Assembly: GCA_030390025.1 (NCBI GenBank)
Contig: JASTWF010000093.1
Span: 992,001 to 1,056,000, forward strand
From: Squalus acanthias
Lineage: Eukaryota
Direction: 5' to 3'
Length of the DNA: 64,000 nt
Positions 1,008 through 60,756 of this stretch are shown here, piece by piece. Positions within the stretch are counted from its first letter, which is position 1; the number at the start of each line of letters is the position of its first letter. The notes under the pieces were generated by a model. It searched no databases. It saw only the letters and a program-made list of their open reading frames with translations, and was not told the DNA's origin. Made by a program: the position numbers and the translations under genes.

Positions 1008-3314
1008 GGTCATGATGCGGAGATGCCGGTGTTGGACTGGGGTGGACAAAAATGAGAAGTCGCACAACACCAGGTTATAGTCCAACAGTTTTATTTGAAA
1101 CCACAAGCTTTCGGAGCTATCGATCGCCCCTTCCTCAGGTGAAGTAAAGAGATACAGAATCGCCAAAGCATATATAGATAGAGAACAATGCATGTGTTAC
1201 TTACAAAAGCAGACGACTACATTTAAATCACCCTGACTGTTTATCTGCCGAGGTGTGACAAAAGGCAATCAGGTCACATCAAAGACATAGCAAGATACAA
1301 CTGAGACAATGAGGTGGAGCCACAGGGGGTCCAATGTGTCAAAAGCCGCAGTATGGGAAACGATAAACTTTAAAATTTTTACTTTTTTACTGGGAATCAC
1401 ATCTGTTAACAAGCCAACGACGACTCGAGTCTGGATCACGTCATGTATCGTGACATAAACCCAAGATCCCGGTTGAGGCCGTCCTCATGAGTGCGGAACT
1501 TGGCTATCAGTTTCTGCTCGATGATTTTGCGTTGTCGTGTGTTTCTAAGTCCGCCTTGGAGAACGCTTACCCGCAGATCCGAGGCTGAATGTCCTTGACT
1601 GCTGAAGTGTTCCCCGACTGGGAGGGAACACTCCTGCCTGGTGATTGTTGCGCGGTGTCCGTTCATACGTTGTCTCTCAGTGTCTGCATGGTCTCGCCGA
1701 TGTACCATGCCGCGGTGCATTCTTTCCTGCAACATATGAGGTAGACAACGTTGGCCGAGTCACATGAGTATGTACCATGTACCTGGCGGGTAGTGTCCTC
1801 ACGTGTGATGATGGTATCTGTGTTGATGATCTGGCATGTCTTGCAGAGGTTGCCGTGGCAGGGTTGTGTGGTGTCGTGGTCGCTGTTATCCTGAAAGCTG
1901 GGTAATTTGCTGCGAACGATGGTACTTCTGAGGTTAGGCGGCTGTTTGAAGGCAAGTAGTGGAGGCGTGGGGATGGCCTTAGCAAGGTGTTCGTCGTCAT
2001 CGATGACATGTTGGAGGCTGCGAAGAACATGGCGTAGTTTCTCCGCTCCGGGGAAGTACTGGACGACGTAGGGTACCCTGTTGGTTGTGTCCCGTGTTTG
2101 CCTTCTGAGGAGGTCTATGCGATTTTTCGCTGTGGCCCGTCAGAACTGTCGATCGATGAGTCGAGCGTCATATCCCGTTCTTACGAGGGCGTTTTTCAGC
2201 GTCCGTAGGTGTCCATCGCGTTCCTCCTCGTCTGAGCAGATCCTGTGTATTCGCAGGGCTTGTCCATAGGGGATGGCTTTTTTAACGTGGTTAGGGTGGA
2301 AGCTGGAGAAGTGGAGCATCGTGAGGTTGTCCGTGGGCTTGCGGTAGAGTGAAGTGCTGAGGTGTCCGTCTTTGATGGAGATTCGTGTGTCCAGGAATGA
2401 AACCGATTCTGAGGAGTAGTCCATGGTGAGTTTGATGGTGGGATGGAACTTGTTTATGTTATCGTGTAGTCTTTTCAGTGATCCTTCACCATGGGTCCAA
2501 AGGAAGAAAATGTCGTCGATGTATCTGGTGTACAGCGTTGGTTGGAGGTCCTGTGCAGCGAAGAAGTCTTGCTCGAACTTGTGCTTGAAGATGTTGTCGT
2601 ATTGGGGTGCGAATTTGGTCCCCATGGCTGTTCCGTGTGTTTGGGTAAAAAAATGGTTGTCGAAGGTGAAGACATTGTGGTCAAGGATGAAGCGGATGAG
2701 TTGTAGGATGGCGTCTGGAGATTGGCTGTTGTTGGTGTTGAGTACTGAGGCTGTCGCAGCGATGCCGTCATCGTGGGGGATACTGGTGTAGAGTGCCGAT
2801 ACGTCCATCGTGGCGAGGAGTGTTCCTGGTTCAACTGGTCCGTGGGTGCTGAGTTTCTGTAAGAAGTCTGTGGTGTCACGGCAGAAGCTGGGGATTCCCT
2901 GTACGATGGGTTTCAGGATGCCCTCGACGTATCCAAAGAGGTTCTCACACAGGGTTCCGTATCAGGCTTTTGACACGTTAGACCCCCTGTGACTCCACCT
3001 CATTGTCTCAGTTGTATCTTGCTATGTCTTTGATGTGGTAAGTTCCTGGCTGACCTGATTGCCTTTTGTCACACCTCGGCAGATAAACAGTCAGGATGAT
3101 TAAATTTAGTTGTCTGCCATTGTAAGGTACACATGCATTGTTCTCTATCTATATATGCATTGGCGATTCTGTATCTCTTTACTTTACCCGACGAAGGAGC
3201 AGTAACTCCGAAAGCTTGTGATTTCAAATAAAACTGTTGGACTATAACCTGGTGTTGTGCGACTTCTCAATTTTGTCCACCCCAGTCCAACACCGGCATC
3301 TCCGCATCAGGACC
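1008..3314 (-). mobile_element. Penelope-like retroelement family 1, 5'-truncated, with inverted pseudo-LTRs (~1008-1345 and ~2966-3314)
   Basis: RT motifs DVSALYTSI, GTAMG, RYIDD, FLD, LYRKPTD; GIY-YIG endonuclease C-terminus (PVGEHF, EQKLI, GLNRD); terminal inverted repeats of ~340 bp. Confidence 0.9.
1101..1142 (-). ncRNA. Minimal hammerhead ribozyme motif in Penelope pLTR (duplicate at 48473-48514; core-mutated CCGACGA copies at 3184-3221 + and 50556-50593 +)
   Basis: tcac-CTGAGGA-a-ggggc[gatcgata]gctcc-GAAA-gc-TT-gtgg: stem I, core, stem II, GAAA, palindromic mini stem III, UH site. Confidence 0.65.
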
Positions 3315-3707
3315 TGTGAGCAGATTGCCTCTTTACTGTGTGGAACATAGGAACAGGAGGAGGCCATTCAGCCCCTCGAGCCTGTTCCGCCATTCAATGA
3401 GATCATGGCTGATCTGTGACTGAAAATGTTGGTAGTGAGGATCCCAGTGTTTTTCTTTTCCATGATTAGCTGCTGTGAGTTCTACACCATGTATTGTTAG
3501 AAATTGGGATTCATGGAGTTATATCGAGTCTACAGCACAGAAACAGGCCATTCGGCCCAACTGCTCTATGCCGGCTTTTATGCTCCATGCGAGACTCCTC
3601 CCAGCCAGAGGATTTGAAGAAATATATTCATCACTGCGTGAGCAAATGATTGTATGTTGGCCTCAGTCTGTGTTGCTTCAGGAGACAGATTTAACTGCAA
3701 AATGTAT

Positions 3708-6700
3708 TTGGGGTGGGCGCGGCTGCAGTTCCAAGAACAGAGGCTTGGGGGTGGGCGCGGCTGCGGTTCCACGAACCGGGGCTTGGGGGTGGGCGCGGCT
3801 GCAGTTCCACGAACCGGGGCTTGGGGGTGGGCGCGGCTGCAGTTCCACGAACCGGGGCTTGGGGGTGGGCGCGGCTGCAGTTCCACGAACCGGGGCTGGC
3901 GGTGGGTGCCGCTGCAGTTCCACGAACCGGGGCTTGGGGGTGGGCGCGGCTGCGGTTCCACGAACCGGGGCCTGGGGGTGGGTGCGGCTGCGGTTCCACG
4001 AACCGGGGCCTGGGGGGCGGGCGGGTCCGCGGTGCCACGCCGCTGGGCGCGGGGGCGGGCGGGTCCGCGGTGCTATGCCCCGGGGCTTGGGGGCGGGCGG
4101 GTCCGCGGTGCCATGCCACGGAGCGCGGGGGAGGGCGCGGCCGCCGTGCCATGCCCCGGGGTGCGGGAGCGGGCGCGTCCACGGTGCCATGCCCCGGGGG
4201 CGGGCGCGGCCGCAGTGCCATGCCGCGGGGCACGGGGACGGCATGGTGCCATGCCCCGGGGCGCGGGGTCGGGCGCGGCCACAGTGCCATGCCCCGGGGC
4301 GCGGGGGAGGCTGCTGTGCCATGCTCCGGGGCGCGGGAGCGGGCGTGGTGCCATGCCCCGGGGCGCGGGAGCGGGCGCGGCCGCGGTGCCATGCTGAGGG
4401 GGCGGGCGCGGCCGCAGTGCCATGCCGCGGGGCGCGGGGGCGGCCGCGGTGCCATGCCCCGGGGCGCGGGGGCAGGCGCGGCCACAGTGCCATGCCCCGG
4501 GGCGCGGGGGCGGGCGCGTCCGCGGTGCCATGCCCCGGGGCGTGGGGCGGGCGCGGTGCCATGCCCAGGGGCGCGCACGTCCGCGGTGCCATGCCCCGGG
4601 GCGCACGCGGTGCCATGCCCCGGGGCGCGGGGGCGGGCGGGTCCTCGGTGCCATGCCCTGGGGCGTGGGGGCGGGCGCGTCCGCGGTGCCATGCCCCGGG
4701 GCGCGGGGGCGGGCGCGGTGCCATGCCCCGGGGCACGGGGGCGGGTGCGTCCGCGGTGCCATGCCCCGGGGCGCGGGGGCGGCTGCTGTGCCATGCTCCG
4801 GGGCGCGGGAGCGGGCGTGGTGCCATGACCCGGGGCGCGGGAGCGGGCGCGGCCGCGGTGCAATGCCGAGGGGGCGGGCGCGGCCGCAGTGCCATGCCGC
4901 GGGGCGCGGGGGCGGCCGCGGTGCCATGCCCCGGAGCGCGGGGGCGGGCGCGGCCGCAGTGCCATGCCCCGGGGTGCGGGAGCGGGCGCGGCCGCGGTGC
5001 CATGCCCCGGGGGCGGGCGCGGCCGCAGTGCCATGCCGCGGGGCACGGGGACGGCATGGTGCTATGCCCCGGGGCGCGGGGTCGGGCGCGGCCACAGTGC
5101 CATGCCCCGGGGCGCGGGGGCGGGCGCGGCCGCAGTGCCATGCCCTGGGGCGCGGGGGCAGGTGCGGCCGCAGTGCCATGCCCCGTGGCGCGGGGGCGGT
5201 GCCATGCCCCGGGGGCGGGCGCGGCCGTAGTGCCATGCCCCGGGGCGGGCTCGGCCGCAGTGCCATGCCCAGGGGCGCGGGTGCGGTGCCATGCCCCGTG
5301 GCGGGCACGGCCGCAGTGCCATGCCCCGGGGCACGCGGGCGGGCGTGGCCACAGTGCCATGCCCCGGGGCGCGGGGGCTGTGCCATGCCCCGGGGCGCGG
5401 GAGCGGGCGCGGCCGCAGTGCCATGCCCCGGGTGCGCAAGTGCCATGCCGCGGGGGCGGGCGCGGCCGCAGTGCCATGCCCCGCGGGCGGGCGCGGCCGC
5501 AGTGCCATGCCCCGGGAGCGGGCGCAGCCGCAGTGCCATGCCCCGGGTGCGCAAGTGCCATGACCCGGGGGTGGGCGCGGCCGCAGTGCCATGCCCCGGG
5601 GGAGGGCGAGGCCGCAGTGCCATGCCCCGGGGACGGGCGCGGCCGCAGTGCCATGCCCCGGGGCGCGGGCGCGGGGGCGGGCGCGGTGCCATGCCCCGGG
5701 GCACGGGGGCGGGTGCGTCCGCGGTGCCATGCCCCGGGGCGCGGGGGCGGCTGCTGTGCCATGCTCCGGGGCGCGGGAGCGGGCGTGGTGCCATGACCCG
5801 GGGCGCGGGAGCGGGCGCGGCCGCGGTGCAATGCCGAGGGGGCGGGCGCAGCCGCAGTGCCATGCCGCGGGGCGCGGGGGCAGGTGCGGCCGCAGTGCCA
5901 TGCCCCGTGGCGCGGGGGCGGTGCCATGCCCCGGGGCGCGGGAGCGGGCGTGGTGCCATGACCCGGGGCGCGGGAGCGGGCGCGGCCGCGGTGCAATGCC
6001 GAGGGGGCAGGGCGCAGCCGCAGTGCCATGCCGCGGGGCGCGGGGGCAGGTGCGGCCGCAGTGCCATGCCCCGTGGCGCGGGGGCGGTGCCATGCCCCGG
6101 GGGCGGGCGCGGCCGTAGTGCCATGCCCCGGGGCGGGCTCGGCCGCAGTGCCATGCCCAGGGGCGCGGGTGCGGTGCCATGCCCCGTGGCGGGCACGGCC
6201 GCAGTGCCATGCCCCGGGGCACGCGGGCGGGCGTGGCCACAGTGCCATGCCCCGGGGCGCGGGGGCTGTGCCATGCCCCGGGGCGCGGGAGCGGGCGCGG
6301 CCGCAGTGCCATGCCCCGGGTGCGCAAGTGCCATGCCGCGGGGGCGGGCGCGGCCGCAGTGCCATGCCCCACGGGCGGGCGCGGCCGCAGTGCCATGCCC
6401 CGGGAGCGGGCGCAGCCGCAGTGCCATGCCCCGGGTGCGCAAGTGCCATGACCCGGGGGTGGGCGCGGCCGCAGTGCCATGCCCCGGGGGAGGGCGAGGC
6501 CGCAGTGCCATGCCCCGGGGACGGGCGCGGCCGCAGTGCCATGCCCCGGGGCGCGGGCGCGGGGGCGGGCGCGGTGCCATGCCCCGGGGCACGGGGCGGG
6601 TGCGTCCGCGGTGCCATGCCCCGGGGCGCGGGGGCGGCTGCTGTGCCATGCTCCGGGGCGCGGGAGCGGGCGTGGTGCCATGACCCGGGGCGCGGGAGCG

Positions 6701-7752
6701 GGCGCGGCCGCGGTGCAATGCCGAGGGGGCGGGCGCGGCCGCAGTGCCATGCCGCGGGGCGCGGGGGCGGCCGCGGTGCCATGCCCTGGAGTGCGGGGGC
6801 GGGCGCGGCCGCAGTGCCATGCCCCGGGGTGCGGGAGCGGGCGCGGCCGCGGTGCCATGCCCCGGGGGCGGGCGCGGCCGCAGTGCCATGCCGCGGGGCA
6901 CGGGGACGGCCATGGTGCCATGCCCCGGGGCGCGGGGTCGGGCGCGGCCACAGTGCCATGCCCCGGGGCGCGGGGGCGGGCGCGGCCGCAGTGCCATGCC
7001 CTGGGGCGCGGGGGCAGGTGTGGCCGCAGTGCCATGCCCCGTGGCGCGGGGGCGGTGCCATGCCCCGGGGCGCGGGTGCGGGCGCGGCCGTAGTGCCATG
7101 CCCCGGGGCGGGCTCGGCCGCAGTGCCATGCCCAGGGGCGCGGGTGCGGTGCCATGCCCCGTGGCGGGCGCGGCCGCAGTGCCATGCCCCTGGGCACGCG
7201 GGCGGGTGTGTTCACAGTGCCATGCCCCGGGGCACGGGGGCTGTGCCATGCCCCGGGGCGCGGGAGCGGGCGCGGCCGCAGTGCCATGCCCCGGGTGCGC
7301 AAGTGCCATGCCGCGGGGGCGGGCGCGGCCGCAGTGCCATGCCCCGGGAGCGGGCGCAGCCGCAGTGCCATGCCCCGGGTGCGCAAGTGCCATGCCCCGG
7401 GGGTGGGCGCGGCCGCAGTGCCATGCCCCGGGGGAGGGCGAGGCCGCAGTGCCATGCCCCGGGGACGGGCGCGGCCGCAGTGCCATGCCCCGGGGGCGGG
7501 AACGGCCGCAGTACCATGCGCCGGGACCGGGCGCGGCCGCAGTGCCATGCCCCGAGGCGCGGGGGCGAGCGCGGCCGCAGTGCCATGCCCCGGGGCGCGG
7601 GCGCGGCCGCAGTGTCATGCCATGGGGCGCGGGCGCGGGTGCGGCCGCAGTGCCATGCCCTGGGGCACGGTGGCGGCGGCCGCAGTGCCATGCCCCCGGG
7701 CGCGGCCACAGTGCCATGCCCCGGGGCTCGGCCGCAGTTCCATGAACCAGGG
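3708..7752. repeat. GC-rich minisatellite with 38-bp base unit (core GTGCCATGCCCCGGGGCGCGGGGGCGGGCGCGGCCGCA), deletion variants and an 888-bp higher-order duplication
   Basis: Direct reading; identical ORF pairs offset by 888 (5291/6179 and 5591/6479). Confidence 0.97.
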
Positions 7753-7904
7753 CACACGCACACACACCACCCCCCCCACCCCGGGAGAAGGCCCGAAGAC
7801 ATTCACAGTGCAAGTGTTAAACTGAAGGAGGACAGGGTGCTAAAATAACTCAACCAATTCTTGGAGACAATGACAAAAGAACAAAATGGCATTAAAAACA
7901 AAGC

Positions 7905-7910
7905 TTTATT
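7905..7910 (-). promoter_or_regulatory. Polyadenylation signal AATAAA of copy A (also 33498-33503 + for B; 53188-53193 - for C)
   Basis: AATAAA ~270-290 nt after the stop, followed by T-rich sequence, conserved in all three copies. Confidence 0.65.
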
Positions 7911-8178
7911 ACATTAACCTGTCCTGATCCAGCAGAAGATGGACAAAAAAAACACTATTGTATTAAATAAGAGTTTGGAAGTTACAAATGAGAAAAGGGA
8001 CCAATCAGATGGCACTTCTTATTCTGCGTCTTGATATTTAGTAGTGAGGGTTAAGGAGACATGTCCACATTTGCACAAGGCTGCGAATAGCAGAAACCCA
8101 CTATGTTGCGACTGTAAATATCGGTTTTCATGGCTGAAGGGGCAGCGTCCAATCACATGCATTTTCTTGAATGATCCA

Positions 8179-8336
8179 TCACGTAATGCCGTATTCATTT
8201 TGTTTCTCTCCATTTGCCAGTGAAACACGTTTCTTGCACACGGCTATGACTAGAATTACAATTATAAATTCAATAGCAAGGACAGTGACTGCAAGCATCC
8301 AGCGATTTCTTGTAAGAACGTGATCAGTTTTCATTT
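8179..8336 (-). CDS. B7-family/CD276-like gene copy A, exon 4 (TM + tail: EMKTDHVLTRNRWMLAVTVLAIEFIIVILVIAVCKKRVSLANGEKQNEYGIT*); spliced CDS 849 nt, 282 aa
   Basis: Acceptor TTTTTTTTCCCACAG|, phase 1; hydrophobic stretch followed by CKKR stop-transfer; TGA at 8181-8179. Not in the ORF track; translated by hand. Confidence 0.85.
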
Positions 8337-8659
8337 CTGTGGGAAAAAAAAGGAAGAAAACTATTGATCATTACGGCAGTGGTTTCAGTGCTGGTTTGGT
8401 CTTCTATGCTAAATCAGCTAAAAAAAGCCCACACATTTACACAGCGCCTTTCACAACCCCAAAGCGCTTTACAGCCAATGAAGTACTTCAAGTGGTCACT
8501 GTTGTAATGCAGGAAACGCAGCAGTCAATTTGCACACAGCAAGCTCCCACAAACAGTAATTAGATAATGACCAGATAATCTGTTTTTTAAAAGTGATGTT
8601 GGTTGAAGGATAATAATAGTCAGGACACCAGGGAGAACTCCCCTGCTCTTCATAATAGT

Positions 8660-9299
8660 CATGATGCGGAGATGCCGGTGTTGGACTGGGGTGGACAAAA
8701 TTGAGAGGTCGCACAACACCAGGTTATAGTCCAACAGTTTTATTTGAAATCACAAGCTTTCGGAACTATCGCTCCTTCCTCAGGTGAAGTAAATTGGATA
8801 CAGAATCGTCAGAGCATATATAGATGGAAAAAAAAGCATGTGTACTTTACAATTGCAGACCAATAAATTAAATCATCCTGACTATCTGCCGAGGTGTGAT
8901 AAAGTTAATTAAGTCAGCCAGGAAGGTACCACATCAAAAGACATAGCAAGATACAACTGAGACAATGAGGTGAAGTCGCAGGGGTTCTAACGTGTCAAAA
9001 GTTAGAACGTTAGAACCCCTGCGACTTCACCTCATTGTCTCAGTTGTATCTTGCTATGTCTTTTGATGTGGTACCTTCCTGGCTGACTTAATTAACTTTA
9101 TCACACCTCGGCAGATAGTCAGGATGCTTTAATTTATTGGTCTGCAATTGTAAAGTACACATGCTTTTTTTTCCATCTATATATGCTCTGACGATTCTGT
9201 ATCCAATTTACTTCACCTGAGGAAGGAGCGATAGTTCCGAAAGCTTGTGATTTCAAATAAAACTGTTGGACTATAACCTGGTGTTGTGCGACCTCTCAA
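8660..9299. mobile_element. Non-coding Penelope family 1 insertion made of two inverted pLTRs (hairpin), 12-bp TSD CTTCATAATAGT
   Basis: TSD at 8648-8659 and 9300-9311; arms 8701-8993 and 9007-9299; empty site in copy C near 53932-53943. Confidence 0.9.
9213..9250 (+). ncRNA. Minimal hammerhead ribozyme motif (mirror copy at 8750-8787, minus strand)
   Basis: tcac-CTGAGGA-a-ggagc[gata]gttcc-GAAA-gc-TT-gtga. Confidence 0.7.
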
Positions 9300-9575
9300 C
9301 TTCATAATAGTGCCATGGGATCTTTTACATCCACCTGAGAGCAGACAGGGCCTCTGTTTAACATCTCATCTGAAAGGCGGCACCTCCGACAGTGCAGCAC
9401 TCCCTCAGTATTGTGCTGGAGTGTCAGCCTAGATTTTTGTGCTCAAGTCTCTGGAGTTGGGCTTGAACCCACGACCTTCTACCACTGATGCATGGCTGAC
9501 ACCTAAAGAGAGATATTAGGCAGGGTGACTAAAAGCTTGGTCAAAGAGGTGGATTTTAAGGAAAGTTTTAAAAAG

Positions 9576-9613
<38 letters not shown>
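9576..9613. repeat. (AG)n microsatellite (also ~54208-54247; not expanded in the right arm near 32307)
   Basis: Direct reading. Confidence 0.9.
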
Positions 9614-10369
9614 GTTTAGGGAGGGAATTCTGGAGCGCAAGCTATAGATGGCTGCCAGTGGCAGTAGGGAATTCACAAGATGCCAGAGTTTGAACAATTC
9701 AGGGGTCTCAGAGGGTTGTAGGGCTAGAGAAGTGTACAGAGATAAGGAGGGATGAGGCCACAAAGGGACTTAACCACAAGGATAAGAATTTTTAATTTGA
9801 GGCGTTGGTAACCAGGTGCTAATGTAGGCCAGCGAGCACAGGGGGAGGGTTAGCAGATCGTAGTGCAGGATAGGAGAAGGGCAGCAGAGATTTGGATGAG
9901 CAGAAGTTTACATAGCGTGGAGGGTACAATACAGCATAGAGAGAACTTCTTATATCCTCTCCAAGGAGCGAAGGAGACATTAAGGAGAGTCTTCCCAAAT
10001 ATGGGAGCAGAATCCAAGTCACAAAAGGACTCGAGCTATAGAGAGTTAAAGGTATTTGGTAAGAAGTGTTTGGCACAAACGAGGAAACAGCTTTTGAGCA
10101 GCCGAGCAATGCAGCAGCTCCATTTGTGGTCTTGGGAGATAGTGAGGCCAAGAACATTGATAAGTCAAGAGAAGTGTAGGCCCATGAAAGTTAAAAAGGT
10201 GCAGCGGTTTATACTTGTGGAACCAGAAAGAAACTGGAACAGAAGTTTCTGAAGAACTGAAAGAAGATTTCCTATACTTCAAATGGCATGGAGATCAAGA
10301 TGTCGTGATTCAGCATTGTATCGCAAGACAACTGGAGGTTATGAGTACTGAGTGTAGGACACAACTTAC

Positions 10370-10654
10370 CTACAGAAAGACCAAATGTTCGAGAAACTGA
10401 TTGGTGTAGAACATCATTTCTTAATCTGAATGTGTAGTTAGAACTCCTATTGGTGTCATTGATTTGCAAAATACTCTGCAGGGAGTATAGACCATCTCCA
10501 CTTTGTTGGTACGAAGTCTCAGACAGTGAAGAAATATCCTCATTTTCTTCATTGTACCAGGAAACAGTAGCCTCAGGGTAACCTTGGGACTCGAATCTGA
10601 ACACTGTCCCGGATGGTGTTAACTGAATAAAAAAGTCAGGTTCCTTGTAGTATG
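10370..10654 (-). CDS. B7-family/CD276-like gene copy A, exon 3 (IgC-like domain, cysteine-free)
   Basis: Acceptor TTTTTAATCTACAG|, donor GTAG|GTAAGT, 285 nt. YYKEP, GYPEATVSW, GLYSLQSIL, RNDVLHQ parallel CD276 YSKP, GYPEAEVFW, GLFDVHSIL, RNPVLQQ. Confidence 0.9.
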
Positions 10655-11242
10655 CTGTAGATTAAAAAAAGGGTCATTAGAAACAAGAAATAAACGTGAT
10701 AAAAATAATGCCAACTAGGAATTTTGTTCCAGTTAATAACTAATTGAATAATGCAATAAAAGCTTTAAATGATCAAAAACAACAAATCCAAGTACAAACA
10801 GAATAGTAGATATTGCTGTTTGTGATCAATTTGGAGATATTCAAATCATTGTACCAAGTGATCAAATTGAAGGTGAAAATCCCACAATATCCTGCTGGCA
10901 GCTGTTCAGCCAAAATCATACGTAACCCTTGATGGTAAATATCAGTGGGCTTTTCACCTGCGAGGCCATCACAGTTCAGCCCGATCCTGGAGCCGTCCAC
11001 AGTCAGGGCTTGCTGAATAGCAAACGGGAGTGCCAACCCTAACCGAGGTGTGTCGATTGCACCAATAGCACTGTCCCAGCGGAGAGGAGCTAAACCAGCA
11101 CAATCTGGGTATCAAACCTGGTCTGTATGGCTCAGGCACTCAATGGTGAGACTCACTGAGCCATCAGGGGAGGCCAAGAAGCATGACTTTAATTATTCAG
11201 AACTGACTGAGAACAAAAATGAAAACTGAAAGAAGCATGTAC

Positions 11243-11593
11243 CTGCAAATATTAGAGACACAATGCCCTGGCCATTTCCTTTTCCATTCCTGACAAAGCA
11301 CACATACTGTCCAGCATCCTCTGGTCTCACTCTGTCCAGCTTCACTGAAACGTTCCCTTGTTTTATCTTCTCTGGGAATAAGCTTGCCCTCCCCGAATAC
11401 CGAGGGCTTTGGCGACTCAGTTGCTCTTTTCCAGAATAATAATAAACAACTTCCTCCGTCTCGACACGGTGCCAACTGATGAACAGCAGATCCAGTGACG
11501 ATTCACCCTGAGCTGTAAAGCTGCAACTCAGCACCGTGTACTGGCCGTAGATAGCAGTCACTGGTGCTTCTGGGGTGTGGACTTGAAACTGAG
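11243..11593 (-). CDS. B7-family/CD276-like gene copy A, exon 2 (IgV domain)
   Basis: Acceptor TTCACAG|, donor GCAG|GTACAT, 351 nt, phase 1-1. V-set motifs LSC, W, RASLF, GNVSVKL, EDAGQYVC resemble the CD276/butyrophilin IgV. Confidence 0.92.
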
Positions 11594-11884
11594 CTGTGAA
11601 TTCAAACAAATAGATTAGTAACAGCATTGTTCCAAGAGATTTAATCTTAACTCTTCAGAACATTTTATTTTAAATGGATGATTAATACGAGATTTAATCT
11701 TGAACACAGGAAAGCACTAAGAAGTAATTATCCCCACAGCTGTATTTTCTCTTCTCCAGAAGGGTTGATATTTCCTGGGTTGATATTTTCTGTGATCTAT
11801 TGAAATAGAAAAAGTTTTGTTCCCTCACCTCACAAAATGGACATCAAAAAAAGCAACTGCAGCAACATGATCAGTAAACATCAC

Positions 11885-13436
11885 AAAATAATGGGACTAA
11901 AAGACGACAGGTCCCCTGGACCAGATGGCCTGCATCCCAGGGTCTTAAAAGAAGTGGCTGCAGAGATAGTGGATACATTGGTTGTAATCTACCAAAATTC
12001 CCTGGACTCTGGAGAGGTCCCAGCGGATTGGAAAACCGCAAATGTAAAACCCCTATTCAAGAAAGGAGGGAGACAGAAAGCAGGAAACTATAGACCAGTT
12101 AGCCTAACATCTGTCGTTGGGAAAATGCTGGCGTCCTTCATTAAGGAAGCATTAGCAGGGCATTTGGAAAATCAATGCAGTCAAGCAGAGTCAGCATGGT
12201 TTTATGAAAGGGAAATCATTTTTAACAAATTTGCTGGAGTTCTTTGAGGATGTAACGAGCAGGGTGGATAAGGGTGAGCCAGTGGATGTGGTGTATTTGG
12301 ATTTCCAGAAGGCATTCAATAAGGTGCCACATAAAAGGTTACTGCATAAGATAAGAGCGCACAGAGTTGGGGGTAATATATTAGCATGGATAGAGAATTA
12401 GTTAACTAACAGAAAACAGAGAGTCGGGATAAATGGGTCATTTTCCGGTTGGCAAACGCTAACTAGTGGGGTGCCACAGGGATCGGTGCTGGGGCCTCAA
12501 CTATTTACAATCTACATTAATGACTTGGATGAAGGGACCGAGTGTACTGTAGCTAAGTTTGCAGAAGATACAAAGATGGGTGGGAAAGTAAGTTGTGCAA
12601 AGGGATATAGACAGGCTAAGTGAGTGGGCAAACATTTGGCAGATGGAGTATAATGTGGGAAAGTGCAAGGTTATCCACTTTGCCAGGAAAAATAAAAAAG
12701 CTAGTTATTTTTTTAAATGGAGATTACAAAATGCTTCAGTTTAGAGGGACCTGGGGGTCCTTGTGCATGAAACACAAAAAGTTAGCATGCAGGTGCAGCA
12801 AGTAATCAAAAAGGCAAATGGAATGTTGGCCTTTATTGCAAGGGGGTTGGAGTATAAAAGCAGAGAAGTCCTGCTACAACTGTACAGGGTATTGGTGAGA
12901 CCACACCTTGAGTACTGCATACAGTTTTGGTCTCCTTATTTAAGGAAGGCTATACTTGCATTGGAGGCAGTTCAGAGACGATTCACACAGTTGATTCCAG
13001 AGATGAGGGGATTGACTTATGAATAAAGGTTGAGCCTATACTCATTGGAATTTAGATGAATGAGAGGTGATCTTATTGAAACATACAAGATACTGAGGGG
13101 GCTCGACAAGGTAGATGCAGAGAGGATGTTTCCCCTCATGGGGAAATCTAGAACTCCGGGGCACAGTTTCAGAATAAAGGGTCGCCCTTTTAGAACCGAG
13201 ATGAGGAGGAATTTCTTCTCTGAGGGTCGTAAATCTGTGGAATTCTCTGCCCCAGAGAGCCTCGGAGGCTGGGTCATTAAACACATTTAAGGTGGAGATA
13301 GACAGATTTTTACAAGATAAGGGAGTGAAGGGTTATGGGGAGCGGGCGGGGAAGTGGCTTTGAGCCCAATATCAGCCATGATCTTATTGAATGGCAGAGC
13401 AGGCTCGAGGGGCCAAGTGACCTATTCCTGCTCCTA
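11885..13436 (+). mobile_element. CR1 LINE, 5'-truncated degenerate RT and 3' UTR (tail resumes at 15696-15712)
   Basis: SPGPDGLHPRVLKE, NYRPVSLTS, YLDFQKAF, RPHLEYC, RGDLIE; frameshifts and stops. Confidence 0.92.
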
Positions 13437-15680
13437 CAAAAAGAAAATACTGCAGATGCTGGAAATCTGAAATAAAAACAGAAAATGCTGGAGATACTCA
13501 GCAGGTCAGGCAGCATCTGTGAAGAGAGAAACAGAGTTAACGTTTCAGGTCGATGACCTTTCGTCAGAACTGGAAGAAAGCAGGAAATGGAACATATTTT
13601 TAAGCAAGTGTAGCAGCTGGGAAAGGGGGGAGGGGATGAAAGAACAAAAGGGAAGGTCTGTGATAGGATAGAAGGCAGGAGAGGTTAAGAGACATTAAGA
13701 GATATTCAAGGCAAAAGGAGATGGTAATGGGACAGGTTAAGAAACAAAGGATGGCTCTAGATGAAGTGTAAATTGCACTGGCAGAATGAAAGACAGCTGC
13801 CATGTGGGGGAGAAGAAAAGACACAAAGGTGTGGATAAAAAATATATATAGGATAGGGGCTGAGGTTATGATCTGAAATTGTTGAACTCTATGTTGAGTC
13901 CAGAAGGCTGTAAAGTGCCTAATCGAAAGATGAGGTGCTGTTCCTCGAGCTTACGCTGAGCTTCAGTGGAACAATGCAAGAGGCCGAGGACGGTGAGGTC
14001 TGAGTGGGAGTGGAGCGGAGAATTAAAGTGACAGGCGACCGGAAGCTCGGGGTCCCCCTTACGGACTGACCGGAGGTGTTCCGCAAAGCGGTCACCCAAT
14101 CTGCGTTTGGTCTCCCCAATGTAGAGGAGACCGCATCGTGAGCAGCAAATACAGTATACTAAATTGCAAGAAGTACAAGTAAATCGCTGTTTCACCTGGA
14201 AGGGGTGTTTCGGGCCCTGGACAGTGGGAAGGGGGGAGGTATAAGGGCATGTGTTGCATCTCCTGCGCGTGCACGGGAAGGTGCTGGGTGAAGGGGAAGG
14301 GGTGCTGGGGGTGATAGAGGAGTGGACTAGGGTGTCTCGGAGGGAGCGGTCCCTACGGAATGCTGAAAGGGGAGGTGAGGGGAAGATGCGTTTGGTGGTG
14401 GGATCACGCTGGAGGTGGCGGAAATGGCACAGGATGATCCGTTGAATGTGGAGGCTGGTGGGGTGAAAGGTGAGGACAAGGGGAACTCTATCGTGGTTCC
14501 GGGAGGGAGGGGCAGGGGTGAGGGCAAAAGTGCGGGAGATAGAACGGACACAGTCGAGGGCCGTGTCAACTACGGTAGAGGGGAATCCTCGGTTGAGGAA
14601 AAAGGAAGACATGTCGGAAGCACTGGTATGGAAGGTGGCATCGTCGGAGCAGATACGGCGGAGACGGAGAAACTGGGAGAATGGAAGAGAGTCCTTACAG
14701 GAGGCGGGGTGGGAGGAAGTATAGTCCAGGTAGCTGTGGGAGTCAGTGGGCTTTTAGTGAATGTTGGTCAATAACCTATCCCCAGAGATGGAGATGGAGA
14801 AGTCGAGGAAGGGAAGAGTCGGAGATGGACCATGTGAAGGTGAGGGAAGGGTGGAAATTGGAGGCAAAGTGAATGAAATTGTCTAGTTTAGGGCGAGAGC
14901 AGGAAACGGCACCGATACAGTCATCAATGTACCGGAAAAAGAGGTGAGGGAGGGGACCCGAGTAGGACTGGAACAAAGAGTGTTCCACATATCCCACGAA
15001 AAGGCAGGCATAGCTAGGAGCCATGTGGGTACCCATAGCAACACCTTTGATTTGGAGGAAATGAGTGGAGTCAAAGGAGAAGTTGTTCAATGTGAGAACA
15101 AGTTCAGCTAGGCGGAGGAGGGTGCTGGTGGATGGGGACTGGTTGGGCCTCTGTTCAAGGAAGAAGCGGAGCGCAGTCAAGCCATCCTGGTGGGGGATGT
15201 TACCTGGCCTGCTGAGTTTTTCCAGCACTTTCTGTTGTTATTTCAGTTTTCCAGCATCTGCAGTATTTTGCTATTGTATTAGAGGTGAGGGGAAGATCTG
15301 TTTGGTGGTGGGATCACACTGGAGGTGGCGGAAATGGTGGAGGATGATCCATTGAATGTGGAGGCTGGTGGGGTGAAAGGTGAGGACAAGGGGAACTCTA
15401 TCGTGGTTCTGGGAGGGAGGGGCAGGGGTGAGGGCAGAAGTGCGGGAGATAGAACGGACACGGTCAAGGGCCGTGTCAACCACAGTAGAGGGGAATCCTC
15501 GGTTGAGGAAAAAGGAAGACATGTCGGAAGCACTGGTATTCCCAACCCCTACACTTGCTTAAAAATCTGTTCCATTTCCTGCTTTTTTCCAGTTCTGACG
15601 AAAGGTCATCGACCTGATACGTTAACTCTGTTTCTCTCTTCACAGATGCTGCCTGACCTGCTGAGTATCTCCAGCATTTT
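13437..15680 (-). mobile_element. Penelope-like retroelement family 2, truncated and rearranged, 15-bp TSD CTATTCCTGCTCCTA, in intron 1 of copy A
   Basis: GVAMG, RYIDD, YKPTD, CxxC and YIGET...RFAEH (GIY-YIG); TSD at 13422-13436 and 15681-15695; empty site in copy B near 28015-28031. Confidence 0.92.
13535..13571 (-). ncRNA. Minimal hammerhead ribozyme motif of Penelope family 2 (duplicate at 58169-58205; GAAA->GATA mutant at 15591-15627 +)
   Basis: agtt-CTGACGA-a-aggtc[atc]gacct-GAAA-cg-TT-aact. Confidence 0.7.
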
Positions 15681-16067
15681 CTATTCCTGCTCCTATTTCT
15701 TATGTTCTTATGTAAATAGACAGGGGCTGTTTCTTTGAAATATTCTTTTCAGCTCCATGAACAATATTTACTTGGGAATTATCCACCTTGCCCATTAAAA
15801 TTACCCAACATCACAAGTGAAACCCTTCGGTCCCAGACCTGAAACGTTAACTCTGTTTCTCTCTCCACGGATGCTGCCTGACCTGCTGAGTATTTACAGC
15901 ATTTTCTGTTGTTATTTCAGATTTGCAGCATCTGCAGTATTTTGCTATTACAAGTGAAACTACTGTTATTGCTTTGGGCCATTGCTCAGTGGTGAAAAGA
16001 CCACCTGAAACTGTGTAGATCGTTCATTCAAATGTGTGCAAGGAAACAGTTACATTTAAAGACTTAC

Positions 16068-16122
16068 CTTGAGCCAAACCGAATTCAACAGCCACCAAAA
16101 CAGCGAGCAGACTTCTCACCAT
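16068..16122 (-). CDS. B7-family/CD276-like gene copy A, exon 1 (signal peptide MVRSLLAVLVAVEFGLAQ)
   Basis: ATG at 16122 in AGTATGG context; 18 mostly hydrophobic codons + 1 nt; donor CAAG|GTAAGT; phase 1 matches the IgV exon; homologous exon in copies B and C. Confidence 0.85.
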
Positions 16123-16491
16123 ACTTTGCTCTCCTCGACAGCTGTCAAAACAAGACAAGACGACCACCAGTGAAAATAATTTCTTTATCGGTTTCCACAG
16201 CTGCAAAAGACCCGCATCTTATGGAGGATTCCGCCGGCACTCGGGGCAGAGCTCGCTGACCGAAATCTAAACCCTCGGGGCTCCGCTCAAGTGGGCGTCG
16301 CCCGCAGCCCGCTCTCTTTCATAGTCCCTGCTGTTACATCATTTACGGATTAGACAGTAAGAAAGCCCCAGACACCGCCCCGCGAGCCAGCGAATCAGAG
16401 ACTGGTTAGAGCTTTTCCTCGGCAGTCCCGCCTCCCCAGGGCTGCCAGACCATGCCACAGACACCGCAGCAGCAGCAACAACCTAGTGGTT

Positions 16492-27390: not shown

Positions 27391-27591
27391 GTGCGGGCTG
27401 CGTGCGCCGTCCCACAGAGAGAGCGGAGCCCCGAGGGTTCAGGTATCGGTCGTCGAGCTCTGTCCCGGGTGCCGCCGGAACCCTCCATAAGATGCGGGTC
27501 TTTAGCAGCTGTGGAAACCGATAAAGAAACGATTTTCACTGATCGTCGTCTTGTCTTGTCTTGTTTTGACAGCTGTCGAGGAGAGCAAAGT

Positions 27592-27646
27592 ATGGTGAGA
27601 AGTCTGCTCGCTGTTTTGGTGGCTGTTCAATTCAGTTTGGCTCGAG
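27592..27646 (+). CDS. B7-family/CD276-like gene copy B, exon 1 (signal peptide MVRSLLAVLVAVQFSLAR)
   Basis: ATG at 27592; donor CGAG|GTAAGT; paralog of copy A exon 1. Confidence 0.82.
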
Positions 27647-27997
27647 GTAAGTCTTTAAATGTAACTGTTTCCTTGCACACATTAGAATGAACGATCCACA
27701 CAGTTTGAGGTGGTCTTTTCACCACTGAGCAATGGCCCAAAGCAATAACAGTACTTTCACTTGTAATAGCAAAATACTGCGGATGCTGCAAATCTGAAAT
27801 AACAGAAAATGCTGGAAATACTCAGCAAGTCAGGCAGCATCTGTGGAGAGAAAAACAAGAGTTAACGTTTCAGGTCTGGGACCGAAGGGTTTCACTTGTA
27901 ATGTTGGGTCAGTTTAATGGGCAAGATGGATAATTCCCAAGTAAACATTGTTCATGGAGCTGAAAATAATATTTCAAAGAAATAGCCCCTGTCTATT

Positions 27998-29584
27998 TAC
28001 ATAAGAACAGAAGAAATGGGAGCAGGAATAGGCCACTTGGCCCCTCGAGCCTGCTCCGCCATTCAATAAGATCATGGCTGATCTTGGGCTCAAAGCCACT
28101 TCCCTGCCCGCTCCCCATATCCCTTCACTCCCTTATCTTGTAAAAATCTGTATCTCCACCTTAAATGTATTTAATGACCCAGCCTCCACGGCTCTCTGGG
28201 GCAGAGAATTCCACAGATTTACGACCCTCTGAGAAGAAATTCCTCCTCATCTCACTTCTAAAATGGCGACCATTTATTCTGAAACTATGCCCCTGAGTTC
28301 TAGATTTCCCCACGAGGGGAAACATCCTCTCTGCATCTACCCTGTCGAGCCCACTCAGTATCTTGTATGTTTCAATAAGATCACCTCTCATTCATCTAAA
28401 TTCCAATGAGTATAGGCCCAACCTGCTCAACCTTTCTTCATAAGTCAACCCCCTCATCTCTGGAATCAACTGTGTGAATCGTCTCTGAACTGCCTCCAAT
28501 GCAAGTATATCCTTCCTTAAATAAGGAGACCAAAACTGTATGCAGTACTCAAGGTGTGGTCTCACCAATACCCTGTACAGTTGTAGCAGGACTTCTCTGC
28601 TTTTATACTCCAACCCCCTTGCAATAAAGGCCAACATTCCATTTGCCTTTTTGATTACTTGCTGCACCTGCATGCTAACTTTTTGTGTTTCATGCACAAG
28701 GACACCCAGGTCCCTCTGAACTGTAGCATTTTGTAATCTGTCTCCATTTAAAAAATAATTTGCTTTTTTATTTTTCCTGGCAAAGTGGATAACCTTGCAC
28801 TTTCCCACATTATACTCCATCTGCCAAATGTTTGCCCACTCATTTAGCCTGTCTATATCCCTTTGCAGATTCTTTGAGTCCTCTGTACAACTTGCTTTCC
28901 CACCCATCTTTGTATCATCCGCAAACTTAGCTACAGTACACTCGGTCCCTTCATCCAAGTCATTAATGTAGATTGTAAATAGTTGATTCCTGTGGCACCC
29001 CACTAGTTACCGTTTGCCAACCGGAAAATGACCCATTTATCCCGACTCTCTGTTTTCTGTTAATTAACCAATTCTCTATCCATGCTAATATATTACCCCC
29101 AGCTCCGTGAGCTCTTACCTTATGCAGTAACCTTTTACGTGGCACCTTATCGAATGCCTTCAGGAAATCCAAATACACCACATCCACTGGCTCGCCCTTA
29201 ACCACCCTGCTCGTTACATCCTCAAAGAACTCCAGCAAATTTGTTAAACATGATTTCCCTTTCATAAAACCATGCTGACTCTGCTTGACTGCATTGATTT
29301 TCCAAATGCCCTGCTAATGCTTCCTTCATGAAGGACTCCAGCATTTTCCCAACGACAGATGTTAGGCTAACTGGTCTATAGTTTCCTGCTTTCTTTCTCC
29401 CTCCTTTCTTGAATAGGGGTTTTACATTTGCGGTTTTCCAATCCGCTGGGACCTCTCCAGAGTCCAGGGAATTTTGGTAGATTACAACCAATGCATCCAC
29501 TATCTCTGCAGCCACTTCTTTTAAGACCCTGGGATGTAGGCCATCTGGTCCAGGGGACCTGTTGTCTTTTAGTCCCATTATTTT
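27998..29584 (-). mobile_element. CR1 LINE, paralogous copy in intron 1 of gene B
   Basis: Same motifs including FADD; uninterrupted tail. Confidence 0.92.
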
Positions 29585-29875
29585 GTGGTGTTTACTGATC
29601 ATGTTGCTGCAGTTACTTTTTTTGATGTCCATTTTGTGAGGTGAGGGAACAAAACTTTTTCTATTTCAATAGATCACAGAAAATATCAACCCAGGAAATA
29701 TCAACCCTTCTGGAGAAGAGAAAATACAGCTGTGGGGATAATTACTACTTAGTGCTTTCCTGTGTTCAAGATTAAATCTCGTATTAATCATCCTTTTAAA
29801 GTAAAATATTCTGAAGAGTCAAGATTAAATCTCTTGGAACAATGCTGTTACTAATCTATTTGTTTGAATTCACAG

Positions 29876-30226
29876 CTCAGTTTCAAGTCCACACCCCTGA
29901 AGCACCAGTGACTGCTGTCTACGGCCAGTACACGGTGCTGAGTTGCAGCTTTACAGCTCGGGGTGAATCGTCACTGTATCTGCTGTTCATCAGTTGGCAC
30001 CGTGTCGAGACAGAGGAAGTTGTTTATTATTATTCTGGAAAAGAGCAACTGAGTCGCCAAAGCCCTCGGTATTCGGGGAGGGCAAGCTTATTCCCAGAGG
30101 AGTTAAAACAAGGGAACGTTTCAGTGAAGCTGGACAGAGTGAGACCAGAGGATGCTGGACAGTACCTGTGCTTAGTCAGGAACACAAAAGGAAATGGCCA
30201 GGGCATTGTGTCTCTAATATTTGCAG
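29876..30226 (+). CDS. B7-family/CD276-like gene copy B, exon 2 (IgV)
   Basis: TTCACAG| acceptor, |GTACAT donor, 351 nt open, both Ig cysteines intact. Confidence 0.88.
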
Positions 30227-30811
30227 GTACATGCTTCTTTCAGTTTTCATTTTTGTTCTGTCAGTGCTGCAAATTAAAGTCATGCTTCTTGGCCTCCCCT
30301 GATGGCTCAGTGAGTCTCGCCATTGAGTGCCTGAGCCGTACAGACCAGGTTTGATGCCCAGACTCTGCTGGTTTAACTCCTCTCCGCTGGAGCAGTGCTA
30401 TTGGTGCAATCGACACACCTCGGTTAGGGTTGGCACTCCCATTTGCTATTCAGCAAGTCCTGCCTGTGGACGGCTCCAGGATCGGGCTGAACTGTGATGG
30501 CCTCGCAGGTGAAAAGCCCACTGATATTTACCATCAAGGGTTACGTATGATTTTGGCTGAACAGCTGCCAGCAGGATATTGTGGGATTTTCACCTTCAAC
30601 TTGATCACTTGGTACAATGATTTGAATATCTCCAAATTGATCACAAACAGCAATATCTACTATTCTGTTTGTACTTGGATTTGTTGTTCTTGAGCATTTA
30701 AAGCTTTTATTGCATTATTCAATTAGTTATTAACTGGAACAAGATTCCTAGTTGGCATTATTTTTATCAAGTTTATTTCTTGTTTCTAATGACCCTTTTT
30801 TTAATCTACAG

Positions 30812-31538
30812 CATACATGGTGGCATAGTGGTTAGCACTGGTGCCTCACAGCGCCAGGGACCCGGGTTCGAATCTGGCCTCGGGTGACTGTCTGTGTGGA
30901 GTTTGCACATTCTCCCCGTGTCTGCGTGGGTTTCCTCCGGGTGCTCCGGTTTCCTCCCACAGTCCAAAAATGTGTGGGTTAGGTTGATTTGGCTATGATA
31001 AATTGACCCTTAGTGTTAGGGGGGGATTAAATATGTGGGGTTATGGGGATAGGATGGGATATGTTAGGGGGAATTAAATACGTGGGGTTATGGGGATAGG
31101 GTGGGATATGTGTCGGTGCAGGCTCAATGGGGATTCTGTGTGAGAAAGCAGGGACAGGGTACTGGATTTGGATGATCAGCCATGATCGTATTGAATGGTG
31201 GAGCAGGCTCGACGGGCCGAATGGCCTACTTCTGCTCCTAGTTTCTATGTTTCTTTCCTACAAGGAACCTGACTTTTTTATCCAATTAACACCATCCGGG
31301 ACAGTGTTCAGATTCGAGTCCCAAGGTTACCCTGAGGCTACTGTTTCCTGGTACAATGAAGAAAATGAAGATATTTCCACACTGTCTGAGACTTCGTACC
31401 AACAAAGTGGAGATGGTCTATACTCCCTGCAGAGTATTCTGCAAATCAATGACACCAATAGGAGTTCTAGCTACACATTCAGATTAAGAAATGATGTTCT
31501 ACACCAATCAGTTTCTCGAACATTTGGTCTTTCTGTAG
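30812..31538 (+). pseudogene. Copy B exon 3 (IgC-like), interrupted after its 5th nt by a 442-bp SINE; coding parts 30812-30816 and 31259-31538
   Basis: The CATAC|TACAAGGAACCT of copy A is split by the insert; the original acceptor reads A-Y-M-V-A-TAG (30826-30828); donor is GTAAAT versus GTAAGT in A/C. May be rescued by alternative splicing (see findings). Confidence 0.75.
30817..31258 (+). mobile_element. tRNA-derived V-SINE (HE1-like) with CR1-type tail, inserted in exon 3 of gene B
   Basis: A box TGGCATAGTGG, B box GGTTCGAATC, V-core GTGGAGTTTGCACATTCTCCCCGTGTCTGCGTGGGTTTCCTCCGGGTGCTCCGGTTTCCTCCCA; absent in copies A and C. Confidence 0.88.
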
Positions 31539-33068: not shown

Positions 33069-33208
33069 AAATGAAAACTGATCACGTTCTTACAAGAAAT
33101 CGCTGGATGCTTGCAGTCAATGTCCTTGCTATTGCATTTATAATTGTAATTCTAGTCATAGCCGTGTGCAAGAAACGTGTTTCACTGGCAAATGGAGAAA
33201 CAAAATGA
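33069..33208 (+). CDS. B7-family/CD276-like gene copy B, exon 4 (TM + short tail ...AVNVLAIAFIIVILVIAVCKKRVSLANGETK*)
   Basis: Acceptor CTTTCTTCACAG|; C-terminal part of track ORF 32807..33208. Confidence 0.8.
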
Positions 33209-39470: not shown

Positions 39471-39479
39471 ATGCTATAA

Positions 39480-50686: not shown

Positions 50687-51079
50687 TGTGAGCAGATTGC
50701 CTCTTTACTGTGTGGAACATAGGAACAGGAGGAGGCCATTCAGCCCCTCGAGCCTGTTCCGCCATTCAATGAGATCATGGCTGATCTGTGACTGAAAATG
50801 TTGGTAGTGAGGATCCCAGTGTTTTTCTTTTCCATGATTAGCTGCTGTGAGTTCTACACCATGTATTGTTAGAAATTGGGATTCATGGAGTTATATCGAG
50901 TCTACAGCACAGAAACAGGCCATTCGGCCCAACTGCTCTATGCCGGCTTTTATGCTCCATGCGAGACTCCTCCCACCCAGAGGATTTGAAGAATTATATT
51001 CATCACTGCGTGAGGAAATGATTGTATGTTGGCCTCAGTCTGTGCTGCTTCAGGAGACAGATTTAACTGCAAAATGTAT

Positions 51080-54207: not shown

Positions 54208-54247
<40 letters not shown>

Positions 54248-60701: not shown

Positions 60702-60756
60702 CTTGAGCCAAACCGAATTCAACAGCCACCAAAACAGCGAGCAGACTTCTCACCAT
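60702..60756 (-). CDS. B7-family/CD276-like gene copy C, exon 1 (signal peptide)
   Basis: Matches copy A exon 1 at offset +44634. Confidence 0.85.

Follow-up and report, generated by a model that had tools for sequence, protein, structure and literature searches.

A 64,000-nucleotide stretch of the Squalus acanthias genome (NCBI GenBank assembly GCA_030390025.1, contig JASTWF010000093.1, positions 992,001 to 1,056,000 of the forward strand; hereafter the window) contains a segment with a CD276-like gene that is present as two inverted arms, one of which carries a GC-rich minisatellite array (A1) where the other keeps, as a single copy, a 37-bp AT-rich sequence related to the repeat unit. All mismatches between this sequence, referred to as the seed, and the core unit of the array interior run from A or T (W) to G or C (S), and the units at both array ends share seed alleles that are missing from the interior. 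It is probable that the minisatellite was born locally, that its units underwent a past phase of GC-biased conversion which raised the GC content of the interior, and that decay of the array has since set in. The local birth, proposed in an earlier note on this DNA, is supported by the homology of the seed, its position and the graded array ends.

Seed, edge and core units of the array

The two arms of the inverted duplication, represented by gene copies L1 (array) and R (seed), differ by 4.04% over 8752 aligned sites, patchily so (about 1.4-9.4% by segment, the highest value being that of the 3′ untranslated region, UTR). Homology of the flanks ends at 3708/34870 and restarts at 7782/33626. 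What lies at and between these points, together with a second array copy (A2) within L2, a direct duplicate of the array arm, is as follows, in window positions.

3308..3708, plus strand: left flank of A1, homologous to 35270-34870 (3-4% different) and to 50680-51080
3709..7753, plus strand: minisatellite array A1, 123 units and a left partial unit; period 38 bp with deletion variants of 22-35 bp; G-rich on the plus strand
3709..3992, plus strand: left partial unit followed by unit 1 and the edge units 2-7, all of them with 6-8 of the 16-17 diagnostic seed (A/T) alleles covered
3993..4107, plus strand: transitional units 8-10, edge/core mosaics with 4/17, 0/17 and 2/17 seed alleles
4108..7736, plus strand: core zone, heterogeneous, 0-2 seed alleles per unit, with multi-unit internal duplications
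7737..7753, plus strand: last partial unit, 4/7 diagnostic seed alleles, 12 bp identical to the seed
7754..7781, plus strand: AC/C-rich filler at the junction that lacks the 1.24 kb
7782..8439, plus strand: right flank of A1, 3′ UTR and last exon of the minus-strand CD276-like gene; homologous to 33626-32971; 3′ UTR part 9.4% different
33627..34869, minus strand: right-arm-only 1.24 kb, 45.5% GC, with a decayed repeat fragment at 34313-34505
34826..34862, minus strand: revised seed, 37 bp, single-copy, 16 GC (43%), colinear with unit 1, starting 7 bp from the end of flank homology
34808..34852, minus strand: seed of the earlier note and, 29 bp downstream, an imperfect direct repeat of it, giving an alternative 29-bp register
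51081..53033, plus strand: second array copy A2, 59 units, with the same layout of partial, edge, transitional, core and last units

Minisatellites, or variable number of tandem repeats (VNTR) loci, consist of units of roughly 10-100 bp that follow one another head to tail for a total of 0.5 to several kb, and A1 and A2 both fall within this range in unit length and total length. A1, placed at 3710-7753 by Tandem Repeats Finder, is composed of units of 22-39 bp and measures 4043 bp by unit splitting, with 82.6% GC and a CpG observed/expected ratio of 0.90; the long stop-free frames running over it are taken as a consequence of the 83% GC. The edge unit (28/38 GC, 74%) and the core unit (34/38 GC, 89%) exist as previously quoted, with seven of their eight differences running from A/T in the edge to G/C in the core, and the eighth, in the opposite direction, is not a reversal, the core keeping the T of the seed there. 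The gradient of 50, 74 and 89% GC drawn by the earlier note from seed to edge to core holds in its last two steps, 89% applying to the consensus core unit only and 82.6% being the array mean, while its first step becomes 43% with the revised seed. Units 41-58 are duplicated as units 69-86 (551 bp, three differences). A2, not in the earlier note, has the unit order of A1 at both ends and is half as long (2.0 against 4.0 kb, 59 versus 123 units) at a flank divergence of 0.51%. It is the sole other array of this unit in the window, where dispersal was checked. As its flanks are those of A1 and its place is within the segmental duplicate L2, it counts as a duplicate or allele of A1, not as a dispersed copy. 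Both ends of A1 are formed by partial units, of which the right one may instead stem from the deletion of the 1.24 kb.

The seed aligns to the whole 38-bp unit with a single 1-bp gap and is identical at 27/37 sites to unit 1 of A2, at 26/37 to the edge unit and at 20/37 to the core unit. All 11 mismatches with the edge unit have A/T in the seed and G/C in the array (Fisher p=6e-4). The same holds for all 17 mismatches with the core unit, in which 17 of the 21 A/T sites of the seed and none of its 16 G/C sites are changed (Fisher p=6e-7), in support of the one-way gain of GC that had been proposed. By class these are 17 W-to-S changes and no S-to-W, S-to-S or W-to-W change, and by type, counted by eye, seven A>G, four A>C, four T>C and two T>G. 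The 7-bp gap between the end of flank homology and the seed is occupied in the left arm by 10 bp from the tail of a unit.

In an exhaustive register test, none of 1000 shuffles reached an identity of 26 with the edge unit (null maximum 23) or of 21 with the core unit (null maximum 20), and none of 1000 had W-to-S mismatches only. Among 115,320 window positions outside the arrays the seed is the best match, the best elsewhere being 24/37. By local alignment, the match of the edge unit to the 80 bp beside the right-arm breakpoint was equalled in none of 5000 dinucleotide shuffles and had the top score among 2764 windows, and its match to the whole 1243 bp was equalled in one of 1000; the core unit alone was not significant (74/5000 for 80 bp; 400/1000 for 1243 bp). 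The resemblance of seed to array claimed earlier therefore exceeds that of shuffled sequence for the edge unit in either test, and for the core unit in the full-unit register only.

The sequence of 17/34 GC that the earlier note took as the seed is present at 34819-34852 of the minus strand, but its register is shifted, and 34862-34826 makes the better seed. This 34-bp register and the 29-bp one were set aside, as both need an insertion of 8-9 bp, and the 37-bp register is preferred, with a boundary microhomology of only about 2 bp (by eye). Direct repeats near the seed are imperfect, with a spacing of 29 bp unlike the 37/38-bp period; autocorrelation in the first 250 bp peaks at 29 bp (z=2.7), and repeat finding gave one family, 103 bp apart. 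The 29-bp repeat may have donated alleles to unit 1, whose sites differing from the 5′ repeat match the 3′ repeat (3/3 in A2 and 4/4 in A1; by eye, and weak as evidence).

The right-arm-only 1.24 kb contains no array, as previously stated, and is not unique throughout: the decayed repeat fragment at 34313-34505 is 65-69% like other copies in the window. It has neither a 37/38-bp periodicity nor a second unit (best 20/37 beyond the seed) nor a relic array. With these features, and with its decayed repeat fragment, it fits old single-copy DNA that was lost from the left arm. For the filler at 7754-7781, no significant source was found in the paralogous 1.27 kb (best score 19; a score of at least 20 occurs in 132/1000 shuffles).

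Over the 17 diagnostic sites, successive units of A1 keep 8, 7, 7, 7, 6 (of 16), 7, 6, 4, 0, 2 and 1 seed alleles, followed by 0-2 throughout the core and by 4/7 in the last partial unit, which is identical to the seed over 12 bp, as had been noticed before; the gradient in A2 is alike. Since both ends share A/T alleles that are missing from the interior, the edge-to-core direction is independent of the seed, and polarised in this way 7/11 A/T sites have changed versus 0/27 G/C sites (p=3e-5). A tree rooted on the seed (45 sequences, namely 43 distinct 38-mers, the last unit and the seed, other units not of 38 bp being left out) groups the core units with units 9-10 as a single clade (ultrafast bootstrap 99, branch 0.21), whereas the edge units (76) branch closer to the root, as does the last unit, in agreement with the proposed order; such a tree is a weak tool, resting on 38 columns of recombining units. 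The retention of seed alleles at either end of the array makes a course from seed through edge to core the likely one, and the seed is probably ancestral.

Cause of the GC gain

We propose the following course of events. A segment with a CD276-like gene would have been duplicated in inverted orientation, and in one arm an AT-rich sequence of 37 bp lying past the poly(A) site would have been tandemly duplicated, the adjoining 1.24 kb being lost there and the single copy being kept in the other arm. The units would then have recombined out of register, and repair of A/T versus G/C mismatches in the heteroduplex would have favoured G/C, that is, GC-biased gene conversion between units, by which new G/C variants could sweep the array, first as the 74% edge unit and then, in the interior, as the 89% core unit. 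Terminal units, having homology on one side only, would have undergone less turnover and kept older alleles. After the biased phase had lapsed, the core would have gathered deletions and mostly S-to-W changes, and the array would have been copied again in the recent duplication.

The seed-to-core comparison has the makings of a tract of GC-biased conversion: W-to-S changes are in excess, S-to-W changes are suppressed, and W-to-W and S-to-S changes are not raised. The occurrence of all four W-to-S types points to a bias in fixation rather than to the signature of a single enzyme, and together with the lack of S-to-S and W-to-W changes and the AT-ward input of new variants it is the mark of biased fixation. 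A signature of RNA editing or of a deaminase was rejected, the changes including A>C and T>G, on both strands. Conversion bias is accordingly named here as the best mechanism that we can infer for the GC gain. Other GC-rich donors in the window (26761-27060, 47841-47960, 41841-41920 and 49041-49120) gave low-complexity or gappy matches only.

The effect is confined to the repeat. Between the arms, 123/4828 A/T sites of the right arm are G/C in the left arm and 153/3924 G/C sites are A/T, without GC bias, so that the 17/21 of the unit exceeds the fraction for the arms as a whole about 32-fold and that of the 3′ UTR (16/229) 12-fold. Neutral turnover shifts a consensus at the mutation rate and in the direction of mutation. 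A neutral chain reached 17/17 in none of 20000 runs with the array's own rates, in 98 of 20000 at a 3:1 GC-biased mutation and in 4280 of 20000 at 10:1. In the 400 bp to the right of A1, differences lean toward G/C in the array arm (16:7 versus 107:146 elsewhere, p=0.015, post hoc), which may be a weak halo supporting recombination.

The recent changes within the arrays run the other way. A spanning tree of core units (95 distinct of 162) contains 81 S-to-W, 10 W-to-S, 14 S-to-S and one W-to-W changes, and fifty core 38-mers compared with their consensus show 103 S-to-W, 19 W-to-S (nearly all at one site) and 15 S-to-S differences, a 38-mer with more than six mismatches being left out of one consensus count and kept in the other. 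Only one W-to-S site segregates in the core 38-mers (position 38, 18/49 units). A1 and A2 differ at 25 of 1428 bp (1.75%), with 22 S-to-W, one W-to-S and two S-to-S differences by hand polarisation; 44 of 55 aligned unit pairs entered this comparison and 11 were dropped (indel or more than two differences; one pair was re-matched by hand), so that the array rate is underestimated. Polarising on a GC-rich consensus biases such counts toward S-to-W, and S sites make up 83% of the sequence. Of the two causes offered by the earlier note, GC-biased mutation finds no support in these mostly S-to-W changes, and GC-biased conversion is retained, seemingly as a past episode and not an ongoing one.

Several points weigh against the proposed course of events. 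The array shows no ongoing GC gain. In chance alignments to so GC-rich a unit, 70% (edge) to 83% (core) of the mismatches are W-to-S in any case, so that base composition accounts for part of the W-to-S appearance, and the register of the seed was first chosen by eye and then confirmed by exhaustive search. The direction of the step from seed to edge rests on parsimony and the end units. The left flank leans opposite to the right one (1:6, p=0.14). The core 38-mers lie 6.4% from their consensus, as deep as or deeper than the divergence of the arms (4.0%; 3′ UTR 9.4%), and the timing must be tight for 17 fixations, calling for a very fast sweep, faster mutation in the array or later homogenisation of the flanks. 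Finally, conversion between units of Arabidopsis centromere arrays needed no GC bias (10.1101/2025.06.02.657473).

Among the alternatives, the best survivor keeps the local birth and attributes the rise in GC to amplification bias, in that variants forming stronger hairpins or G-quadruplexes (G4) would stall replication and be duplicated more often, or to palindrome-templated repair, such variants then taking over the interior; we regard it as unlikely. Folding energy per base does fall from -0.13 kcal/mol in the 29-bp seed register to -0.19 in the edge and -0.42 in the core unit, the core gains perfect palindromes of 10 bp and 8 bp, G-runs of at least three increase from none in the 29-bp register to three in the edge unit, with the G4 score rising from 0.07 to 1.03, and G4-dependent instability is known for CEB1 in yeast (PMC3486850) and has been suggested for avian sequence stuttering (PMC12954441). 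However, the real core is not extreme among the 128 G/C outcomes at the seven edge-core sites (17/128 for folding energy, 16/128 for palindrome sum, 102/128 for internal repeats), and a palindrome- or direct-repeat-templated origin of these seven changes, not being significant among the 128, was rejected. A drive by G4 from edge to core was likewise rejected, as the score drops there from 1.03 to 0.66, with 119/128 outcomes as high or higher. Strict G4 motifs number only six in A1 (123 units) and three in A2 (59 units), far from the presence in most units that marks the CEB1 type.

A reversed history, in which the array or a GC-rich edge-type unit was ancestral and the right arm shrank to a single unit whose sequence then decayed toward A/T, the flanks being homogenised later by conversion, is quite improbable. 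Decay from S to W would be the normal direction of change and also the present trend of the array, the patchy divergence of the arms makes conversion between them likely, and a contraction relic would likewise resemble the end units. Such a history nevertheless demands 11 S-to-W changes at 27 G/C sites of single-copy DNA, as against 153/3924 in the arms, with only 3 of the 11 being CpG transitions (by eye); it finds no second unit or unit-length periodicity in the 1.24 kb, and it leaves the edge-to-core changes unexplained, the same A/T alleles standing at both ends.

A slighter chance still is given to a past burst of GC-biased mutation, through error-prone repair synthesis during expansion, in place of biased fixation. 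Such a burst would solve the timing problem, transversions between A1 and A2 are at about four times the flank level (11/1428 versus 27/13727), and the 10:1 bias in the neutral chain yields 17/17 in a sizeable share of the runs, as given above, but the recent spectrum of the array is AT-ward, contrary to GC-biased mutation. No polymerase or editing signature is known to us in which all four W-to-S types are favoured at close to 10:1 whichever the strand, which also weighs against the burst. The insertion of a dispersed satellite by way of a short chance match, with a coincidental seed, is scarcely credible: the core alone is not significant by local alignment, 1.24 kb was lost and the right junction holds the filler for which no significant source was found, but the full-unit match is unsurpassed in the window and only 7 bp separate it from the syntenic breakpoint, both array ends are graded toward the seed, the only other array copy within the window has the same flanks, and no target-site duplication is visible at the array.

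Returning to GC-biased conversion as the preferred cause, we tentatively consider that tandem duplication itself might start a GC ratchet, in which out-of-register recombination multiplies GC-biased conversion, turning about 80% of the A/T sites of the unit to G/C, against a few per cent in the flanks; the product, being rich in CpG, may act like a promoter-type hotspot and attract further breaks, until methylation silences it. If this were true, GC-rich minisatellites would be made GC-rich after birth and not born in GC-rich DNA. A PRDM9-driven hotspot is not invoked here, PRDM9 appearing partial or uncertain in cartilaginous fish (PMC5519329).

The CpG sites of the arrays behave like those of their surroundings. 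CpG transitions between A1 and A2 amount to 10/425 sites (0.024), compared with 18/700 (0.026) in the L1/L2 flanks, non-CpG transitions to 4/755 compared with 25/5572, and the ratio of CpG to non-CpG transitions to 3.4-4.4 in the array and 3.3-5.7 in the flanks. As the CpG transition rates equal those of the flanks, array CpGs mutate like bulk DNA, and the array is presumably methylated in the germline, like bulk DNA. CpG islands are delimited in composition by a length above 500 bp, a GC content above 55% and a CpG observed/expected ratio above 0.65, all of which A1 exceeds (4043 bp, 0.826 and 0.90). A1 would thus be a CpG island by composition only, the CpG transitions arguing indirectly against an unmethylated state in the germline, and the idea that a working CpG island had arisen de novo is not borne out.

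Comparison with known minisatellites

The extreme GC-richness of many vertebrate minisatellites is usually attributed to their location. The present case suggests that a repeat became GC-rich after forming, in DNA of about 45% GC, and one genome here preserves the precursor, ordered intermediates and two later copies. Single-copy precursors and local expansion are already known; a GC gain after birth that is so clean and extreme is unusual. In the open-licence literature no report was found of a minisatellite series from seed to core with W-to-S changes only, older subscription papers lying outside that search.

The closest precedent is the 30-mer VNTR of human CACNA1C, which has a single-copy precursor in chimpanzee and gorilla differing at 3/30 sites (PMC12452837). 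Both loci have a multi-kb array against one copy in the comparison sequence, units keeping precursor alleles and internal multi-unit duplications, but the shark precursor is a paralog in the same genome, is different at 17/37 sites, all from A/T to G/C, and is joined to the core by intermediates ordered along the array. In avian sequence stuttering on dot chromosomes, once-unique sequence expands locally, in a way linked to GC-rich regions, and mechanisms of conversion and G4 have been proposed (PMC12954441). A1 resembles it in its strictly local growth into imperfect tandem repeats of tens of bases; stuttering, described in birds with a mention of gerbils, is chromosome-wide, mostly intronic and strongly variable in length within populations, whereas A1 is one 3′ intergenic elasmobranch locus in DNA of about 45% GC, neither intronic nor part of a region-wide pattern, and the part of that text available reports no one-way GC change from source to copies.

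The birth models of Taylor and Breden 2000 and of Haber and Louis 1998, as described in PMC3389668, predict an incomplete terminal unit or flanking direct repeats of 5-10 bp. The shark locus has an incomplete terminal unit and short imperfect repeats around the seed, 29 bp apart, but about 2 bp of boundary microhomology in place of a 5-10 bp direct repeat, and the models as described there are silent on a gain of GC. GC-biased conversion between paralogs has been proposed for human segmental duplications, with an effect of a few per cent (10.1101/2022.07.06.498021), and has been described at hypomethylated PRDM9-independent hotspots (PMC11161765). The raised W-to-S and suppressed S-to-W changes are common to these cases and the present one, which differs from the human duplications in that 81% of the unit A/T sites are changed, in that the change is confined to the repeat, and in that it seems to have stopped. 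With CEB1, CEB25 and HRAS1 (PMC3486850) the shark arrays share a GC-rich tandem structure with G-runs on one strand, but not the abundance of canonical G4 motifs. In sharks, short chromosomes and chromosome ends are GC-richer, and short chromosomes are richer in tandem repeats (PMC10620051).

The case, a single locus for which no function is claimed, bears on how CpG-dense DNA can arise from nothing. For other young arrays it points to a genome-wide search for an excess of W-to-S changes among their terminal units, their core units and the corresponding single-copy paralogs or orthologs.

Genomic setting

The CD276-like IgV-IgC-transmembrane (TM) gene, an immune gene, is present in three copies in the window (Pfam and tblastn), the IgV exon at 29839-30234 matching CD276 antigen-like proteins of sharks and rays (six matches among 171 candidates, the best from Heptranchias perlo at 78%). 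The gene copies and the duplicate are as follows.

8182..16137, minus strand: copy L1 of the CD276-like (B7-family IgV-IgC-TM) gene (Pfam, tblastn)
8182-8337, about 10360-10658 and 11241-11597: TM, C and V exons of L1
16072-16137: probable leader exon of L1, weak match (E=0.054)
27574..33208, plus strand: copy R, in the inverted arm carrying the seed
47363..63075, plus strand: L2, direct duplicate of 1-18441, 0.51% different over 13727 sites, carrying A2
53466..60771, minus strand: third CD276-like copy L2, inside the direct duplicate

Some 430 bp separate A1 from the stop codon of L1, and some 155 bp from the AATAAA at 7910. The 0.51% divergence, an insertion found in L1 only (8652-9302, below) and the unequal array lengths would also fit a tandem assembly of two haplotypes (1-18441 and 47363-63075). 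The duplicate ends at 63075, passing into sequence without a match in the window. Rfam gave no matches and ARAGORN no genes in the window, and the array had no match among plasmid records, which is uninformative on dispersal in the shark.

In the 120 bp left of A1 (3590-3708), L1 has four private substitutions where L2 and R agree (p=0.003 at a background of 0.5%), which are not GC-biased; mutagenesis linked to the array, an error in the sequence or conversion from a paralog outside the window are possible sources. At 8652-9302, a 600-bp near-perfect palindrome consists of two terminal repeats of the reverse transcriptase (RT)/GIY-YIG-type element at 1008-3314, which we take to be Penelope-like; it is inserted in L1 only, L2 and R both lacking it. 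In L2 (47895-47920), but not in L1 (535-545), 10 bp of a C/G-rich run show an incipient duplication.

In copy R, the TM exon (33068-33208, plus strand) has a 2-bp deletion near its end, giving a cytoplasmic tail shorter than those of L1 (8182-8337, minus strand), L2 and the Heptranchias protein. Upstream of the leader exon of R, at 26451-27268, nested direct duplications (219 bp at 97% and 78 bp at 99%) surround a GC-rich segment. A lone, more distant CD276-like TM/cytoplasmic exon at 40453-40610 (plus strand) matches the query proteins at about 45% (best E=6e-5). No V or C exon that would belong to it lies close by, and it may either serve copy R as an alternative last exon or be left over from an older paralog.

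A second, unrelated minisatellite at 37773-39471 has 59 units of 29 bp with 93% matches, making two minisatellite loci in 64 kb and not a region-wide pattern. Its first unit has A/T at two sites with a G/C consensus, faintly echoing the pattern of A1; one of these variants recurs inside the array and is a CpG transition, so that the evidence is weak. A long interspersed nuclear element (LINE) at 41968-45474 contains frames for an endonuclease and RT (42409-45474) and, at its 5′ end, short tandem units rich in GC; a truncated 5′ copy of it (39481-39958) starts directly after the 29-bp array.

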